From positions 2,976,001-3,040,000 of the forward strand of contig CBDFJF010000001.1 in NCBI GenBank assembly GCA_965248265.1: a DNA stretch of 64,000 nt, read 5' to 3'. A program made the translations under genes and the position numbers. The notes below the pieces were generated by a model that did no database searches, was not told where the DNA came from, and saw only the letters and a list, made by a program, of their open reading frames with translations. Positions 11,096 through 40,878 of this stretch are shown piece after piece. Every line of letters begins with the position of its first letter. Position 1 is the stretch's first letter. Source of the stretch: Candidatus Latescibacterota bacterium. Lineage in GTDB: Bacteria; Latescibacterota; UBA2968; UBA8231.

Positions 11096-12037
11096 TCAGG
11101 CGTCGCCGGATGCACGGTTGTGTAGAAATCCCCGCGTCCGGTTATACCACCACAGATAGTCGATGAATATGGAGGGCAGCGTTCCGGATTGGCGCCAGTC
11201 GGCCCACATCGCGAGTGGAGCGTATATGAATCGCTGCAGCGCTAGCCGCAGCATCCACCGCCTCGGCGAAAACCAGCTGGCATGCAGGAAATCCAGGCGC
11301 AGAAGCTCGCACAGTTCAGGATGCTTCTCGAGCAGTAAGGGCAGCGAGTGCCTTCCGTAGGTGTACATCAACTCGCTCGTCTGTCTCAGTGGACGAACAC
11401 GGTGATGCAACGACCCCACCGCCGCGCACAGACGGAATCGAGCACCCGCCCCATGCAGTCGATAGCCCAATTCCAGATCTTCGCCGCCATACGCTTCAAA
11501 GCGTTCGTCGAAAAGGCCCACGCTCAACAAACGAGCTCGCTCCACGGAGGAGTTCCCGGTCACGAAGCACTTGAATGGCAAAGACGCGCCATCAGCGAAG
11601 CGCTGGGCACCCCGGCTCTCGATATATCGCGTAATCGCCGAAGGCACGATCTGCGGGCCAAAGCGGATGTCGCCGATGGCCACCTCACCGGGATGATCCC
11701 TGTGGAACTGAGCGTGGGCGGACAGAAAATCGGCGCTCACCGTCATGTCGTCGTCGAGGAAGACGACCAGACTGCCCTCAGCAGCGCGAATGCCGGCGTT
11801 GCGGGCACGAGCACGACCCCCGTGGGCCTCGAGCAGGATCGGCTTCAGCGGCAGCGAGCCTTCGTATTGCTGCAACGCCGCCTCAGAGCGGTCGGGCGAG
11901 CCGTCGTCAATGACGATGATTTCCGCACGGTCTCGCGGGTACAACTGTGTCCCAAGGCTGGCCAACACGGCGGGCAGCAGCAGGGGAGCGTCGTAGGTCG
12001 GGACGATGACGCTGATGGAGGGCAGGTGATCCGTCAC
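11096..12037 (-). CDS. Glycosyltransferase family 2
   Basis: ISVIVPTY, IDDGS, ARNAG, FLDDD and GGEDLELGYR motifs. Confidence 0.92.
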   Translation of the reverse strand: MTDHLPSISVIVPTYDAPLLLPAVLASLGTQLYPRDRAEIIVIDDGSPDRSEAALQQYEGSLPLKPILLEAHGGRARARNAGIRAAEGSLVVFLDDDMTVSADFLSAHAQFHRDHPGEVAIGDIRFGPQIVPSAITRYIESRGAQRFADGASLPFKCFVTGNSSVERARLLSVGLFDERFEAYGGEDLELGYRLHGAGARFRLCAAVGSLHHRVRPLRQTSELMYTYGRHSLPLLLEKHPELCELLRLDFLHASWFSPRRWMLRLALQRFIYAPLAMWADWRQSGTLPSIFIDYLWWYNRTRGFLHNRASGDA

Positions 12038-12038
12038 A

Positions 12039-13154
12039 TCAAAGTGCGGCGTAAAGATCGGTCAGTTTGGCGGATTCTTTCTCCCAGCAGAACCGCTGGG
12101 CGGCTTGGAGAGCGGCCTCGGCATATCTGACTCGCCCGGCAGGATCGGCGACCAGGCGCTGCAGTCGGTTGCGCAGCGAAGGCGGGTCCGTGAGATCGAT
12201 CACTTCCCCTGCGCCGGTCTCGGTCAGTGTTCGGCGGATTTCCGGTGCTTCACTGCCCACTACCGGCAGTCCTGCCATCATGTACTCGAAGAGCTTATTC
12301 GGTAGCGACCAGTGGAAGCTCTTACCGGTTGATTTGATCAGGCACAATCCAATATCGGCTGAGCAGGTAAACGCATGAAGTTGGGAAAATGGCACTGCTG
12401 GTAAGAAAAACACCCGATCGTCCAACCCGGAGACGGCCACCTGGCGCTCGAGCTGCGCCTTGATTGGTCCATCACCCAGCAAGACAAGGGCAGCGCCTTC
12501 GACGCCGGCCATCGCCTCGATCTGTTCTGACAGTCCGTTGTCGGTGAGCAATCCACCCTGGTAGAGGAGGATGACCCGATCACCTTCAAGGCCGATGCGC
12601 TCACGAATCAGGTCACCGGGTACGGGAGAACGAAACGGTGGCAGATTGCCAATTACGGTAACGTCGCGAAACCCGTATCGATTCTTCAGCTCCTCAGCGA
12701 TAGGCGGGCTGACGGTGATGACATGACTCACATACCGGCTCAGGCGCCTCTCCATCGTGGCCCAGACGCCACGTACGAGCGGTCTGGAAGCCAGTGAAGA
12801 TTGCTCCGTCCACAACTCGTGTGAATCGTAGACCAGGGGTACTCTGCGTGCTCGTGCAGCTCTCGATGCCGGCCATAGGGAATCGAGATCGTGCGCATGG
12901 TAGGCGTCAGCGGGGATTTCGCGCAGGATTCGATGCCCATTGCGCCACCACATCAAATAGGATAATCGCAGAGATCGTGCACGGTCGACTGGCCAGGCGT
13001 GGACGTCGAAGTCGTCCCAGGCACTATCCAGCTGTTGATTCCAGGTGCCAGCCACGATAGACACCTGGTGACCGGCATTCTTCAGGCTCGCCGCTTCCCG
13101 GTAAATGCGGAAATCGAAGTTGAGGTCGGTAAAGGCGACCATGCAGATGTGCAT
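12039..13154 (-). CDS. Glycosyltransferase family 4
   Basis: DFRIYREA, YDSHE and PNKLFEYMMAGLPVV motifs. Confidence 0.92.
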   Translation of the reverse strand: MHICMVAFTDLNFDFRIYREAASLKNAGHQVSIVAGTWNQQLDSAWDDFDVHAWPVDRARSLRLSYLMWWRNGHRILREIPADAYHAHDLDSLWPASRAARARRVPLVYDSHELWTEQSSLASRPLVRGVWATMERRLSRYVSHVITVSPPIAEELKNRYGFRDVTVIGNLPPFRSPVPGDLIRERIGLEGDRVILLYQGGLLTDNGLSEQIEAMAGVEGAALVLLGDGPIKAQLERQVAVSGLDDRVFFLPAVPFSQLHAFTCSADIGLCLIKSTGKSFHWSLPNKLFEYMMAGLPVVGSEAPEIRRTLTETGAGEVIDLTDPPSLRNRLQRLVADPAGRVRYAEAALQAAQRFCWEKESAKLTDLYAAL

Positions 13155-13202
13155 GAGTGTGTAGCGGAGCCGTCGAAAGAAGCCTGGTAGTGGAATGAGA
13201 TC

Positions 13203-13244
13203 AAAGAAAAAGAGCAGCCCGTCAGGTTGTTGACAGGCTGCTCT
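13203..13244 (-). terminator. Intrinsic terminator
   Basis: Minus-strand RNA AGAGCAGCCUGUCA-acaacc-UGACGGGCUGCUCU-UUUUCUUU: 14-bp stem with a G.U pair and a U tail. Confidence 0.85.
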
Positions 13245-13497
13245 CTTAATGAAAATGAGTGTGGCGATCCTGGGGTGCGCTCAACATCCAGAAACGAGAT
13301 CTTCGAACGAGGCGGCGTGGGGAGGTGTCTAAAAGATCTCCTCGGCCCGAAAAAGGGCATCCGAGCTGTCCGGAATCAGAACGTTCAGTCACGCTCAACA
13401 GACCGCCACACTCAACATCAAAACTACTGTTAATGATAGACTTATGAAACTTAACCCGAATGTCTAAGAAAGGTCGGGTAAGTGGCTGTCTCGCTGT
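13203..13497 (-). ncRNA. Putative structured non-coding RNA (about 290 nt), family not recognised
   Basis: Bounded by a near-consensus promoter and an intrinsic terminator; no credible ORF; 13-bp, 8-bp and other stems whose G.U pairs fit the minus strand. Confidence 0.6.
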
Positions 13498-13503
13498 AGG
13501 TTG

Positions 13504-13532
13504 AATCTAACGAGCGAAAGGGGCAATGTCAA
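13504..13532 (-). promoter_or_regulatory. Strong sigma70-type promoter
   Basis: Minus strand TTGACA-N17-TAGATT. Confidence 0.75.
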
Positions 13533-13592
13533 GAAAGATCGGCGCTCTCGACCGTTATCCTGCCGAGTTGGAGCACACCCTGGGCGGAGTTC

Positions 13593-14084
13593 CTAAGGAG
13601 TAATCTGAGCTGATAGCGGCGATCCTGGCAACGCGATACCTCCCCGCTCGCGGTTGGCGATCACGGTCAGAACCTCATTGCGGACGAAGGGGTGCGGATC
13701 TTTGAGAGCACTGATCAGGTACTTGTTCGCGTGCACGGCTTCCATCGCGCCCAGTTTCTGCACAACCTGAACTCTCAGGCCTGGATCGCGGTCCTTCATG
13801 GCCAAACCAAGAACCCGCGCGACTTCCTTCTTCAGTTTCTTGTCATCCTTCTGCCCTAGATCGCCCAACAGATCGACGGCCCCGGCACGAACAGCTCGAT
13901 CTCGGTCCTTGAGGAGCTGCAGCAACACATCGGTGGTCTCAATGGTCTTTTCCTTGCCCAGGATCGGCAGAAAGCGAATGGGCGGCACCGTGCGCAAGGC
14001 GCATCCCGAGCCCATACAGACCAGAACCCCAAGCATTGAGGCTAAAGCGTAATTCTTGAAGACGTGTTTGATTCGCATGGTCAT
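13593..14084 (-). CDS. HEAT-repeat lipoprotein
   Basis: Lipobox-like GSGC; three PBS-lyase/HEAT-like repeats (LKDRDRAVR, MKDRDPGLR, LKDPHPFVR). Confidence 0.8.
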   Translation of the reverse strand: MTMRIKHVFKNYALASMLGVLVCMGSGCALRTVPPIRFLPILGKEKTIETTDVLLQLLKDRDRAVRAGAVDLLGDLGQKDDKKLKKEVARVLGLAMKDRDPGLRVQVVQKLGAMEAVHANKYLISALKDPHPFVRNEVLTVIANRERGGIALPGSPLSAQITP

Positions 14085-14216: not shown

Positions 14217-14759
14217 TCAGTATCCTGGTAAAGTGAATTCACCCTCAGCGATAGCTCGCTCCAGCTCTTGGTGGAAGGTGCTGTCGAGGTAGGAAGTGAT
14301 CTTCCACCCATCGGAGTCGTGGATGAAGTAGAAAAATGGGGTCACCCTGGAAGAGGCCAGCGTGGTAGGATCGAAGCGGAGAAAGGCGATGCGATCGTTT
14401 ATCGGCCCCTCCTCGGCGATCTCCCGGCGCCGGGCAACTCGGGTCAACTCGGCAATTTCAGCGTCCCACCGATTCTGCCAATTGACGTAGTCGCCGCCGT
14501 ACTCGCTTTTTCGCAAGCTGCCGCTTAAGCAATCCCACACGGCGAGGGTGTCTTGCGCAAGCACGCCCTGCACGTAGGTCTCATAGGTGGCCACCGGAGA
14601 CGCGTATCGAGGGTCGTCGTCAGCGCAGGCTGTGCACAGCAACAACGACGCCAACAGTCCCCATCGCAAGATCGAGTCAGCAAAGTGTTGGGGGAGAGAG
14701 AAACGCACTGTGAGGGTGGTGGATAGGGTGTGGTCACTCGAGGAGCGACCGGCAATCAA
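14217..14759 (-). CDS. Hypothetical lipoprotein (start uncertain, possibly GTG near 14708)
   Basis: Lipobox-like CTAC; NTF2-like pattern (SPVATY...DGWKI); overlaps the upstream stop codon. Confidence 0.65.
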   Translation of the reverse strand: MIAGRSSSDHTLSTTLTVRFSLPQHFADSILRWGLLASLLLCTACADDDPRYASPVATYETYVQGVLAQDTLAVWDCLSGSLRKSEYGGDYVNWQNRWDAEIAELTRVARRREIAEEGPINDRIAFLRFDPTTLASSRVTPFFYFIHDSDGWKITSYLDSTFHQELERAIAEGEFTLPGY

Positions 14760-15496
14760 GGCTGGGTTTCGTTGGCGAGGCGCTCGATCTGGTCCCGCAA
14801 CAGGGCGGCCTCTTCATACTGCTCGCACATCACGGCCTGTTGCAACCGGTTCTGCAGCTGCAGGAGGGTGGCCTCATGGCTGTTCTTGGACGGTTGCTGA
14901 TTCTGGGACGTCGTAGACGTCTGGGGCAGCAGGGGTTGCTCCGTCGTTGCACCCTCTTCAGTGTTTCTGCCAGCATCAGCGAGCAACTCGGGGGTTTGCG
15001 GTTCCATCTCCCTGAAACGGGCAATGGCATCGTCCACATCACCACGGTCTTCCTCAGTTGAAAGTCCGGATTCTTCCAGGAGCTCTTCAGTGACGAACAC
15101 CGGGATGCCCAGCCTTAACGCCAGAGCGATACCATCACTTGGACGAGTGTCAATGTCGCGAAGCTCGCCCTCCCTCTCGATCAAGACGGAACCGAGGAAC
15201 ACCTGGCGGCGCACGGTATGGATGACCACGCGACGGACGGTAACGCCCAACTGCCGCACCATGGAGGCAAGCAAGTCGTAGGAGATAGGACGCAGTGACT
15301 TGTCTTCACCCAATGGCATCTGAATGGCCGCGGCCTCGAACTCACCGACCGCGATGGGAAGCAGCCTGGGGTGGCCTTCACTATCCTTTTCGCACAGCCA
15401 CACGAGTGGTTGTTCAGGTCGCAAGAACGGGGTTACCCTGGTGACGCTCATCTGCAGCAGGCGTCTCTTGCGGTTGGAATCTCGCTGTTTGTTCAT
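14756..15496 (-). CDS. Bifunctional nuclease (DUF151) protein with C-terminal UvrB/C motif, copy 2
   Basis: LPIAVGEFEAAAI, RPISYDL, DTRPSDGIALA; C-terminal LQQAVMCEQYEEAALLRDQI. Confidence 0.88.
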   Translation of the reverse strand: MNKQRDSNRKRRLLQMSVTRVTPFLRPEQPLVWLCEKDSEGHPRLLPIAVGEFEAAAIQMPLGEDKSLRPISYDLLASMVRQLGVTVRRVVIHTVRRQVFLGSVLIEREGELRDIDTRPSDGIALALRLGIPVFVTEELLEESGLSTEEDRGDVDDAIARFREMEPQTPELLADAGRNTEEGATTEQPLLPQTSTTSQNQQPSKNSHEATLLQLQNRLQQAVMCEQYEEAALLRDQIERLANETQP

Positions 15497-15506
15497 CGGC
15501 GAGGAC

Positions 15507-16145
15507 TTATCCCCCCTGCTGGGTAAGCTCGGTGATGAGATCGCGCAATCGGGCGGCCTCCTCAAAGACCTCCTCAGAAACTGCCTGGTCAAGCCGCTTC
15601 TTGAGCTGGTCTACCTCACTGAGTGGATTGTCTGTCGACGTCTTAGCCCGCTGCATGAGGTCTGCGATGGCGGCGTTGATGCCATCCGCCGTGGGCTCTT
15701 CCCCATCACTCTCCAGTACCAGTTCGTCTTCCTCACGGGCGGCGTCTTCGGCGGCTTCGGCCTCTTCTTGCAACACCGCTTCGGATGCAAAGATCGGCGC
15801 GTTGGCACGCAGGGCCAGGGCGATGGCATCGCTGGGCCTGGAATCGAGCGAGGTGGATGAATTGTCCGCGTTCTTTAGCTGCACCTCGGCGTAGTAAATG
15901 CCGTCCTGCAGGTCCGTGATTGACACCTGTTGGATCCTGCTACCCGACTCCTGAAGAAGCGAGCAGACCAGATCGTAGCTGAGGGGCCGAGCCGGCTTCT
16001 GTCCGTTGTGAGCAAGGGATATCGCCCTTGCTTCCGTGGGTCCGATGACGATGTGCAACGAGGCATCCCCATCCTTTTCCTTGAGAATAACTCGATGGTA
16101 GGAACGCGAGCTTACCTGCACCCGGTTCACTTCCATCTCAATCAT
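15507..16145 (-). CDS. Bifunctional nuclease (DUF151) protein with C-terminal UvrB/C motif, copy 1
   Basis: IVIGPTEARAI, RPLSYDL, DSRPSDAIALALR; C-terminal AVSEEVFEEAARLRDLI. Confidence 0.9.
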   Translation of the reverse strand: MIEMEVNRVQVSSRSYHRVILKEKDGDASLHIVIGPTEARAISLAHNGQKPARPLSYDLVCSLLQESGSRIQQVSITDLQDGIYYAEVQLKNADNSSTSLDSRPSDAIALALRANAPIFASEAVLQEEAEAAEDAAREEDELVLESDGEEPTADGINAAIADLMQRAKTSTDNPLSEVDQLKKRLDQAVSEEVFEEAARLRDLITELTQQGG

Positions 16146-16227
16146 CGTTTTCTTGCCGGCGGAAAGGGGCATGCTGTTCCTCAAGGAATCATCCTGCATC
16201 AGACAACCACCGCTTCATCCTCGGTTG

Positions 16228-34249: not shown

Positions 34250-34324
34250 TGCCCGGTCGTTCAAGTGGTAGGACAACGGATTTTGGTTCCGTCTATCGAG
34301 GTTCGAGTCCTCGCCGGGCAGCCA
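34250..34324 (+). tRNA. tRNA-Gln(TTG)
   Basis: TGCCCGG/CCGGGCA acceptor stem, ACGGA-TTTTGGT-TCCGT anticodon arm, GGTTCGAGTCC T arm, encoded CCA. Confidence 0.96.
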
Positions 34325-40779: not shown

Positions 40780-40878
40780 GGGAGCGGATGGGATCCTGGT
40801 GGTCTCCGCGGACTTCAAATCCGTTGCGGTGTCGCGACAGCGGCGCTGGGTGGGTTCGATTCCCACACGTTCCCGCCA
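40780..40878 (+). tRNA. selC: tRNA-Sec (TCA anticodon)
   Basis: CGGA-CTTCAAA-TCCG anticodon arm, extended D stem, 9-bp variable arm, GTGGG-TTCGATT-CCCAC T arm, G discriminator plus CCA. Confidence 0.93.

Follow-up and report, generated by a model that had tools for sequence, protein, structure and literature searches.

The 6S RNA of Escherichia coli is co-transcribed with a downstream gene and processed afterward; in the OxyR-OxyS, GcvA-GcvB, and SgrR-SgrS pairs, the gene for a transcription factor is located divergently from the gene for a small regulatory RNA (sRNA); and EAR and put are processive antitermination RNAs that act on RNA polymerase. Yfr1, an sRNA of cyanobacteria, possesses an ultraconserved unpaired sequence, ACUCCUCACAC (PMC2190773), represses its targets by sequestering the ribosome-binding site (PMC2796815), and controls cell wall genes in Nostoc (PMC6974561). 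An RNA that can be compared with these systems is encoded in a stretch of 64,000 nucleotides (nt) of a Candidatus Latescibacterota bacterium (assembly GCA_965248265.1, contig CBDFJF010000001.1, positions 2,976,001 to 3,040,000 of the forward strand), which is called the window here. The RNA is located in a gap of 438 nt between a gene for a HEAT-repeat protein (13593-14084) and a gene for a GT4-family glycosyltransferase, all on the minus strand. It is conserved, structured, and expressed, and it belongs to a family that is absent from Rfam 15 and confined to one family of the Latescibacterota (formerly WS3), a phylum without any cultured member to our knowledge.

The minus strand of the gap carries a near-consensus sigma-70 promoter, TTGACA-N17-TAGATT, followed by a stretch without a conserved reading frame and then by a G+C-rich, U-tailed terminator hairpin, and the sequence of the RNA occurs as a single copy in its 7.3-Mb genome. 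An earlier note on this DNA had described an unannotated structured RNA of about 290 nt with its own promoter and terminator, without a credible open reading frame (ORF), and not recognizable as 6S RNA, signal recognition particle (SRP) RNA, RNase P RNA, transfer-messenger RNA (tmRNA), or a common riboswitch. All of this was borne out except for the length, because the conserved unit comprised only about 160 nt (13415-13256). Comparison of the whole window with Rfam 15 at gathering thresholds gave no match in the region of the RNA, and comparison of region 13100-13650 in E-value mode gave only four matches, all of them to models of eukaryotic small nucleolar RNAs and microRNAs, with E values between 0.44 and 5.9. 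The genome encodes SRP RNA, RNase P RNA, and tmRNA at other places, each detected with a strong score. A full-text search of the literature, which does not reach supplementary motif catalogues, revealed neither this RNA family nor any RNA regulator of Latescibacterota. The only Rfam matches in the whole window were a selenocysteine tRNA at 40780-40874(+) with 68.9 bits and one ordinary tRNA at 34250-34321(+).

A comparison by blastn with 40 relatives yielded matches in 12 of the 24 genomes from the same family and in none of the 16 from other families, and the matches always spanned about positions 126 to 290 of the query, corresponding to 13415-13251 of the window. In an alignment of 13 loci, this block starts with GAGUGUGGCGG and ends with CCGCCACACUC, and the flanking regions could not be aligned save for the promoter upstream and the terminator downstream. 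The covariance model R1 found exactly one match in 57 of the 76 genomes of the family, which represent 16 of its 18 genera, no match in the 56 genomes of the three other families of the class, and no match in a phylum-wide sample of 87 genomes from 13 other families. The RNA was missing from five complete or near-complete genomes of the family, G015, G017, G043, G089, and G091, with G015, G017, and G089 being complete. When metagenomes were scanned for the loose pattern GTGTGGCG-N125-155-CGCCACAC, at least 119 stretches were returned, and R1 (E ≤0.001) fitted none of 80 such loci, which look unrelated by eye; for 16 fixed bases, thousands of chance matches were estimated. A search of species genomes for the exact 20-mer from the loop of hairpin P4 gave 40 records and no new lineage. 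The deposited labels of the metagenome-assembled genomes with this 20-mer are inconsistent and read Latescibacterota or Latescibacteria, Gemmatimonadetes or Gemmatimonadota, or "uncultured bacterium."

The consensus structures calculated by RNAalifold from 13 and from 50 homologues had an identical architecture. P1 with 13 bp closes the whole domain and is accompanied by a short P1b (GUG/CGC here, commonly GUG/CAC in the family), a large internal loop is located between P1 and P2, and P2 with 6 bp encloses the two hairpins P3 and P4. In a MAFFT alignment of the 50 homologues, built without fitting to the covariance model, standard pairs were present in 92.6% of the cells, and 23 of the 43 pairs changed on both sides, so that the stems were conserved with compensatory changes among relatives, the check that the earlier note had proposed. 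None of 500 shuffles matched the observed values on any of five measures, with the limits that these shuffles ignore relatedness and that the structure had been derived from the same sequences. When the 3' partners were slid by 1 to 3 columns, pairing fell to 36 to 50% and the covariation score from 0.31 to between 0.07 and 0.11.

Most of the covariation was located in P4, which has 12 pairs in the consensus and 9 in this genome; 94.5% of its cells were paired, and 10 of the 12 pairs changed on both sides. While this stem covaries, its loop holds the near-invariant sequence ACCUCCCCACRCCGCCUCG with the anti-Shine-Dalgarno (anti-SD) core CCUCC, and the C-rich loop of P3 is the other conserved loop. 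P1 was paired in 96 to 99% of the cells and is almost fixed in sequence: only 3 of its pairs changed on both sides, GUGUG/CACAC scarcely varied, two U-A pairs were constant, and A154 and the bases adjacent to it were invariant or nearly so. P2 was paired in 83.5% of the cells with changes on both sides in 3 of 6 pairs, and P3 in 91.7% with such changes in 2 of 7 pairs; the minimum-free-energy structure of the single sequence from this genome draws P3 differently. A search for pseudoknots by all-against-all column covariation in the 50-homologue alignment was noisy and revealed no run of stacked pairs. In two species of genus g14 (loci L055 and L056, from G074 and G079), the 3' strand of P1 is tandemly duplicated as GGCCGCCACAU followed by GGCCGCCACACUCU, which provides two alternative closing strands.

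The stems and motifs named in the earlier note can be judged from these data. Its 13-bp stem is P1 of the consensus and covaries. Its 8-bp stem also reappeared, covarying, as P4, and has 9 pairs here, and its 5' ACCCGA/UCGGGU hairpin is present in this genome and was not kept in relatives. UGUUGAG does occur three times (13417-13411, 13400-13394, and 13286-13280), with the third copy not conserved, and UUAGACA does occur twice, with neither copy kept in relatives; the idea of repeated loop motifs as functional units had to be abandoned because these motifs are lineage specific. In the whole window, both strands together, TGTTGAG was present 19 times compared to 7.5 times expected, a number reached by 0 of 100 shuffles, so that the excess is not peculiar to the RNA.

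The folding energy of the region 13497-13203 had a z score of -6.2 relative to shuffles, with much of this signal coming from the terminator; the core alone had a z score of -3.7 and its reverse complement one of -3.0. Since both fold well, the folding energy does not determine the strand. The minus strand, which the earlier note had chosen on account of G.U wobble pairs, is fixed by the many G.U pairs and by the model scores, 31.8 to 170 bits on this strand versus 23.5 to 26.1 bits for three matches on the opposite strand. A small protein-coding ORF was rejected as an explanation: the longest ORF in sense orientation shrinks to 9 to 29 amino acids (aa) in 10 of the 50 homologues (L004, L007-L010, and L022-L024 among them), and the core lengths of 150, 155 to 162, 166 to 170, and 175 nt do not differ by multiples of three.

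Transcripts of this RNA are present in environmental libraries, as the earlier note had asked to be checked. Six RNA-library runs contained 13 to 16% of the words of a 1,101-nt query; four of these, which stem from seawater, sponge, and marine metatranscriptomes of four studies, were aligned. Each of the four yielded one contig of 199 to 223 nt that consists wholly of this RNA, extends from 13262/13263 to between 13458 and 13476, and is 95 to 99% or more identical to the window; a fifth contig is the version of the same RNA from a relative. All four contigs stop at the same place, an invariant A inside the 3' strand of P1. One of them continues for eight letters, which we take to be the start of an Illumina adapter, and if so, many fragments would end at 13262/3. 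Relatives have either C or U at position 13261, so strain variants could also explain these ends. Trimming may shorten the abundant form of the RNA to a 3' end that reads ...GCCA. The upstream ends of the contigs were staggered, one of them with strain divergence, and consequently do not mark the start. Nevertheless, contigs reaching position 13476 indicate that transcription begins upstream of it, in agreement with the promoter at 13532-13504. A second promoter beside the core, TTCATA-N17-TAGTTT, was rejected as the only start site because the contigs extend further upstream. The absence of contigs over 12600-13228, which comprises the first 555 nt of the GT4 gene, the 48 nt ahead of its ATG, and most of the terminator, and over 13488-13598 is not evidence on silence of the GT4 gene, relative abundance, or contamination by DNA.

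The promoter is the sole sigma-70-like site between 11000 and 16000, and shuffles give 1.4 such sites, so the single site is not significant. The weight of the assignment comes from its conservation: a motif TTGACN-N16-18-TANNNT was present upstream of the core in 49 of the 50 related loci, starting 32 to 153 nt before it. Almost no leader is left in about 23 of the 50 loci (20 belong to genus g14), which have the promoter 31 to 41 nt before the core, and in the largest genus, with the promoter about 40 nt ahead of the core, the RNA begins almost at P1. A hairpin terminator followed the core in 44 of the 50 loci as scored by a script, 11 to 18 nt beyond P1 and without overlap with the core. 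Three of the six loci missed by the script (L047, L049, and L052) showed a strong hairpin in plain folds; the hairpin of L048 lacks a U tail, and no U-tailed hairpin was seen in the divergent loci L050, L051, and L053. The hairpin in this genome has 17 pairs, not the 14 given in the earlier note, which had placed it correctly about 50 nt before the GT4 gene: the U tail ends 48 to 52 nt before the GT4 ATG, and between 16 and 56 nt before the start in 33 of the 35 loci in which both could be measured. No convincing promoter for GT4 was found between terminator and ATG; in genus g14, only weak hexamers with 3 of 6 matching positions were visible by eye.

The suggestion of the earlier note that UGUUGA pairs with UCAACA in the terminator as an attenuator failed, since this pairing is not conserved and was no better than in shuffles. 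For the duplex of the terminator 5' arm and loop with the core (60 shuffles), the median z score was -0.13, none of 44 loci was below -2, and this genome had a z score of +0.39; for the 3' arm, only 3 of 44 loci were below -2. A classical terminator riboswitch is therefore not supported by comparison of the loci, as no conserved antiterminator pairing was found. The features of the locus are listed in Table 1.

Table 1. Positions of the RNA, its parts and signals, and the genes downstream of it in the window
Feature	Position	Strand	Remarks
Promoter TTGACA-N17-TAGATT	13504..13532	-	Predicted start near 13497
5' leader, about 80 nt, lineage specific, with ACCCGA/UCGGGU hairpin at 13479-13454	13417..13497	-	Not alignable among genera
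Conserved structured core, about 160 nt	13256..13415	-	Match of model R1 (G000:C1:2989256-2989415, 152.7 bits); blastn; alignments
P1, 5' strand GAGUGUGGCGGUC, pairs with 13269-13257	13401..13413	-	Alignment of 50 homologues
P1, 3' strand GAUCGCCACACUC; RNA-library contigs end inside it at 13262/13263	13257..13269	-	
P2, 5' strand CCGGAC, pairs with 13293-13288	13368..13373	-	6 pairs
P3 hairpin, 13366-13360 with 13351-13345, C/U-rich loop	13345..13366	-	7 pairs
P4 hairpin, stem 13340-13332 with 13304-13296 (GAGAUCUU/AAGAUCUC), 27-nt loop 13331-13305	13296..13340	-	
Intrinsic terminator, 17-bp hairpin 13247-13208 plus U tail	13203..13247	-	
GT4-family glycosyltransferase gene	12039..13154	-	Pfam matches
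GT2-family glycosyltransferase gene, directly after GT4	11096..12037	-	Pfam matches

In 37 of the 50 loci, a divergent gene at a distance of 150 to 250 nt from the core encodes a protein of about 199 aa that begins with an HTH_3 (XRE) domain. Examples are L003:1865-2461(+), L028, and L005, and the C-terminal half of the protein fits no Pfam family. A palindrome, ACACA-N7-8-GTGTG, was present in the promoter spacer of the RNA in 34 of the 37 loci with this regulator versus 2 of the 13 loci without it. A second palindrome either precedes the promoter or lies in the leader, and occurrence at either position makes a DNA site likelier than an RNA element. We infer from this co-occurrence that the XRE-type protein probably controls the promoter of the RNA through the palindromes. 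In G010, regulator and RNA have remained together, although the genes downstream have changed.

In 48 of the 50 loci, an orthologue of the GT4 gene (46 to 60% identity) begins 59 to 276 nt after the core in the same orientation, usually followed by the GT2 gene, and the neighbor upstream varies between the HEAT gene, the XRE gene, and hyp180. The operon is short, comprising GT4, GT2, a 205-aa protein, and a CPBP protease. The linkage to glycosyltransferases, which the earlier note had proposed as a check on cis or trans action, thus exists, and RNA and GT4 also occur apart; this separation is based on four genomes. G010 possesses the best-scoring RNA of all (170 bits) together with the regulator and has lost the GT4 orthologue. 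In G018, the GT4 gene lies 1.6 kb from the RNA owing to an insertion element. In G017 and G089, the GT4-GT2 genes follow straight after hyp180 with a G+C-rich gap of 70 to 105 nt that has no sigma-70-like site, and no RNA was found in these two genomes even with the search filters off. G015 lacks both the RNA and GT4-GT2.

The arrangement in the RNA-free genomes G017 and G089 points to BFN, hyp180, GT4, GT2 as the older gene order, and the RNA gene with its promoter and terminator appears to sit inside this older string. As this arrangement leaves little room for a GT4 promoter, the GT4-GT2 genes of the RNA-bearing genomes would be reached only by read-through of the RNA's terminator.

Some observations on the neighborhood may be added. 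Downstream of the RNA, G010 (L115:631-7180(-)) encodes a 567-aa protein that fits no Pfam family, a GT4-type enzyme with only distant similarity (28% identity), and a 1,218-aa protein with beta-helix, FlgD-Ig, and M6-peptidase-like parts. In G018 (L116:5374-5895(-)), a 173-aa transposase fragment (HTH_21 plus partial rve) separates the GT4 gene from the RNA, which is intact with 122 bits. In the window, two adjacent ORFs at 14756-15592(-) and 15507-16199(-), which overlap by 86 nt as called, each encode a BFN (bifunctional-nuclease) domain and a UVR motif; throughout the family, both of them and a family-less 180-aa ORF at 14217-14759 keep their synteny with the RNA locus. The sequence CACACUCAU was found twice: one copy (13261-13253) is located at the 3' end of P1 and the other (13160-13152) directly at the start codon of GT4. 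The first codons of GT4, AUGCRCAUNUGYAUGG, are kept at the nucleotide level across genera.

The data establish that the RNA exists and that it is structured. With respect to its function, the evidence leans toward action in trans without settling the choice between trans and cis. The favored explanation, to which somewhat less than an even chance is given, is that of a trans-acting regulatory sRNA. It is preferred because promoter, RNA, and terminator form a self-contained unit that is mostly paired with a divergent regulator, because RNA and GT4 gene were each found without the other, and because the most constrained part is an exposed C-rich loop with an anti-SD core. The 16S rRNA tail of the organism has the canonical anti-SD sequence, and SD-like motifs were present before 33% of crude ORF starts versus 16% of the controls. 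According to this explanation, the unpaired C-rich loop of P4 would pair with the G-rich ribosome-binding regions of target mRNAs. In most relatives, the divergent XRE-type regulator would govern the promoter of the RNA via the palindromes, a control that would have been lost from this genome. The terminator of the RNA would also work passively in cis, with GT4-GT2 being transcribed only by read-through, and the RNA itself would be trimmed to its putative 3' end at 13262/3.

Several results weigh against a trans-acting sRNA. The P4 loop had no antisense match of at least 16 nt elsewhere in the genome, the long matches being only those to the RNA gene itself, and a seed-and-duplex scan revealed no outstanding start codon site. 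The other matches, of 11 to 15 nt, were at the level expected by chance (E between 0.09 and 23) and away from start codons; both searches were crude and covered a single genome without gene calls. Most base-pairing sRNAs have simpler structures than this 160-nt multihelix fold, the closing stem of which is invariant in sequence, and such a fold would suit an RNA that binds a protein or a ligand. The window's own genome possesses neither a homologue of the regulator nor the palindromes. The coincident ends of the contigs are only a weak hint of a real 3' end. The family is narrow, its whole neighborhood syntenic, and the relatives are not independent. Finally, GT4-GT2 come straight after the RNA in 48 of the 50 loci, with the U tail near the ATG, which has the look of a cis-acting leader.

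Such a leader, with the RNA as 5' untranslated region (UTR) of the GT4-GT2 operon controlling passage of the terminator via a ligand, as a riboswitch whose expression platform is unusual, via a protein, or via RNA polymerase in the manner of EAR and put, is a somewhat less likely alternative, which stands close behind the trans-acting sRNA because of the near-universal tight placement before GT4 and because of the three terminator-less loci. The RNA precedes GT4-GT2 on the same strand while its upstream neighbor varies, the distance between U tail and ATG is short, and no promoter-like site is located in between. In L050, L051, and L053, which have no terminator, the RNA is a plain 5' UTR of GT4. 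Even the replacement genes downstream of the RNA in G010 again include a GT4-type enzyme, and aptamers typically combine a complex fold with invariant bases in loops and junctions. On the other hand, no alternative pairing of core and terminator is conserved, a linker of 11 to 18 nt parts the two, and the near-invariant sequence of P1 is unusual for the P1 of a riboswitch. The RNA was kept without an adjacent GT4 orthologue in G010 and G018, GT4-GT2 exists without the RNA in G017 and G089, and the operon is so short that processive antitermination is not obviously needed. Action in trans and action in cis are not mutually exclusive, and the terminator gates GT4-GT2 either way.

The RNA may alternatively be 6S-like or another protein-bound housekeeping RNA, abundant, stable, and cut from a longer transcript, with its ends and internal loop binding RNA polymerase or a protein, which is improbable. 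Single copy, strong promoter, a length of about 160 to 215 nt with the ends in a long closing stem, the large internal loop between P1 and P2, and contig ends suggesting removal of the terminator would fit. Moreover, the Rfam 6S model (RF00013) matched nothing in the genome itself (E up to 10) and none of 132 genomes of the class, so that the position of the 6S RNA is unfilled. However, the families without this RNA also show no 6S RNA, and the two distributions are thus not complementary. The RNA matches no 6S model, its distal part is branched into a three-way junction with P3 and P4 instead of being a rod, and its conservation is strongest in the hairpin loops, not in a central bubble. It is confined to one family and missing even there from five complete or near-complete genomes, and a regulator with operator-like sites argues for regulated and not for housekeeping expression.

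Similarly doubtful is the idea that the RNA, comparable to glmS, represents a new class that senses a ligand or processes itself and would govern the glycosyltransferase operon, with the invariant loops and the fixed P1 as its binding or catalytic core. In this case, cleavage or processing at the invariant A (13262) would free a stable core from the GT4-GT2 message, with terminator and XRE regulator as further layers of control. Self-cleavage in the manner of glmS, with a cut at 13262/3 freeing a stable core from the GT4-GT2 mRNA, is very improbable: the shared stop of the contigs from four studies, one of them with what we take to be adapter sequence, the near-invariance of A154 and its neighbors, and a place ahead of sugar metabolism genes resembling that of glmS speak for it, but no Rfam ribozyme family matches, no catalytic-core motif was recognized, strain variants at 13261 could produce the contig ends, and an endonuclease cut in the A/U-rich linker followed by exonuclease trimming would give the same end.

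With covariation, a conserved promoter, a candidate regulator, and environmental expression, this RNA gene would be the first well-supported lineage-specific one for Latescibacterota. Its host lineage is uncultured and turns up in seawater and sponge samples, and the covariance model can be used as a marker of this family of Latescibacterota in metatranscriptomes. An RNA gene with a terminator that is wedged into an older operon makes the balance of read-through a question of cell surface control. Structured RNA motifs of unassigned function are found in their hundreds, and this one has a phylogenetically narrow range.

When the locus is compared to the known systems, EAR and put share with it a structured RNA that precedes intrinsic terminators and lies among polysaccharide or glycosyltransferase genes. 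The RNA differs from them in having no Rfam match and only a short operon behind it and in accumulating as a discrete small RNA. As in OxyR-OxyS, GcvA-GcvB, and SgrR-SgrS, the gene for a factor is divergent, and the promoter of the RNA bears palindromic candidate sites; unlike in these pairs, the regulator is an XRE/HTH_3 protein with an uncharacterized C-terminal half, its binding is predicted, and it is absent from the genome of the window. With 6S RNA, the RNA has in common the size class, single copy, strong promoter, end-to-end closing stem, internal loop, likely 3' processing, and placement ahead of a codirectional protein gene. It is distinguished from 6S RNA by the missing model match, the branched distal domain, loop-centered conservation, occurrence in one patchy family, and the pairing with a regulator gene. 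Terminating riboswitches and leaders, including the glmS ribozyme, resemble it as structured RNAs before sugar genes that are followed by a terminator and, within tens of nucleotides, by a start codon. It departs from them by the lack of antiterminator pairing, the fixed P1 sequence, the absence of overlap between core and terminator, the separability of RNA and genes, and the missing match to an Rfam riboswitch.

Yfr1 is the closest working analogue. It has 54 to 69 nt and two stem-loops with the motif between them, and the RNA described here has a 160-nt core that is closed by a long-range stem and carries the motif within the 27-nt loop of a hairpin; the phylum is a different one and there is no Rfam match, so the likeness is one of working principle and not of descent. 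Both have their own promoter and Rho-independent terminator, and both expose an unpaired C/U-rich motif that ends in CACAC, CCUCCCCACAC here and CCUCCUCACAC in L002, compared to ACUCCUCACAC in Yfr1 (PMC2190773).

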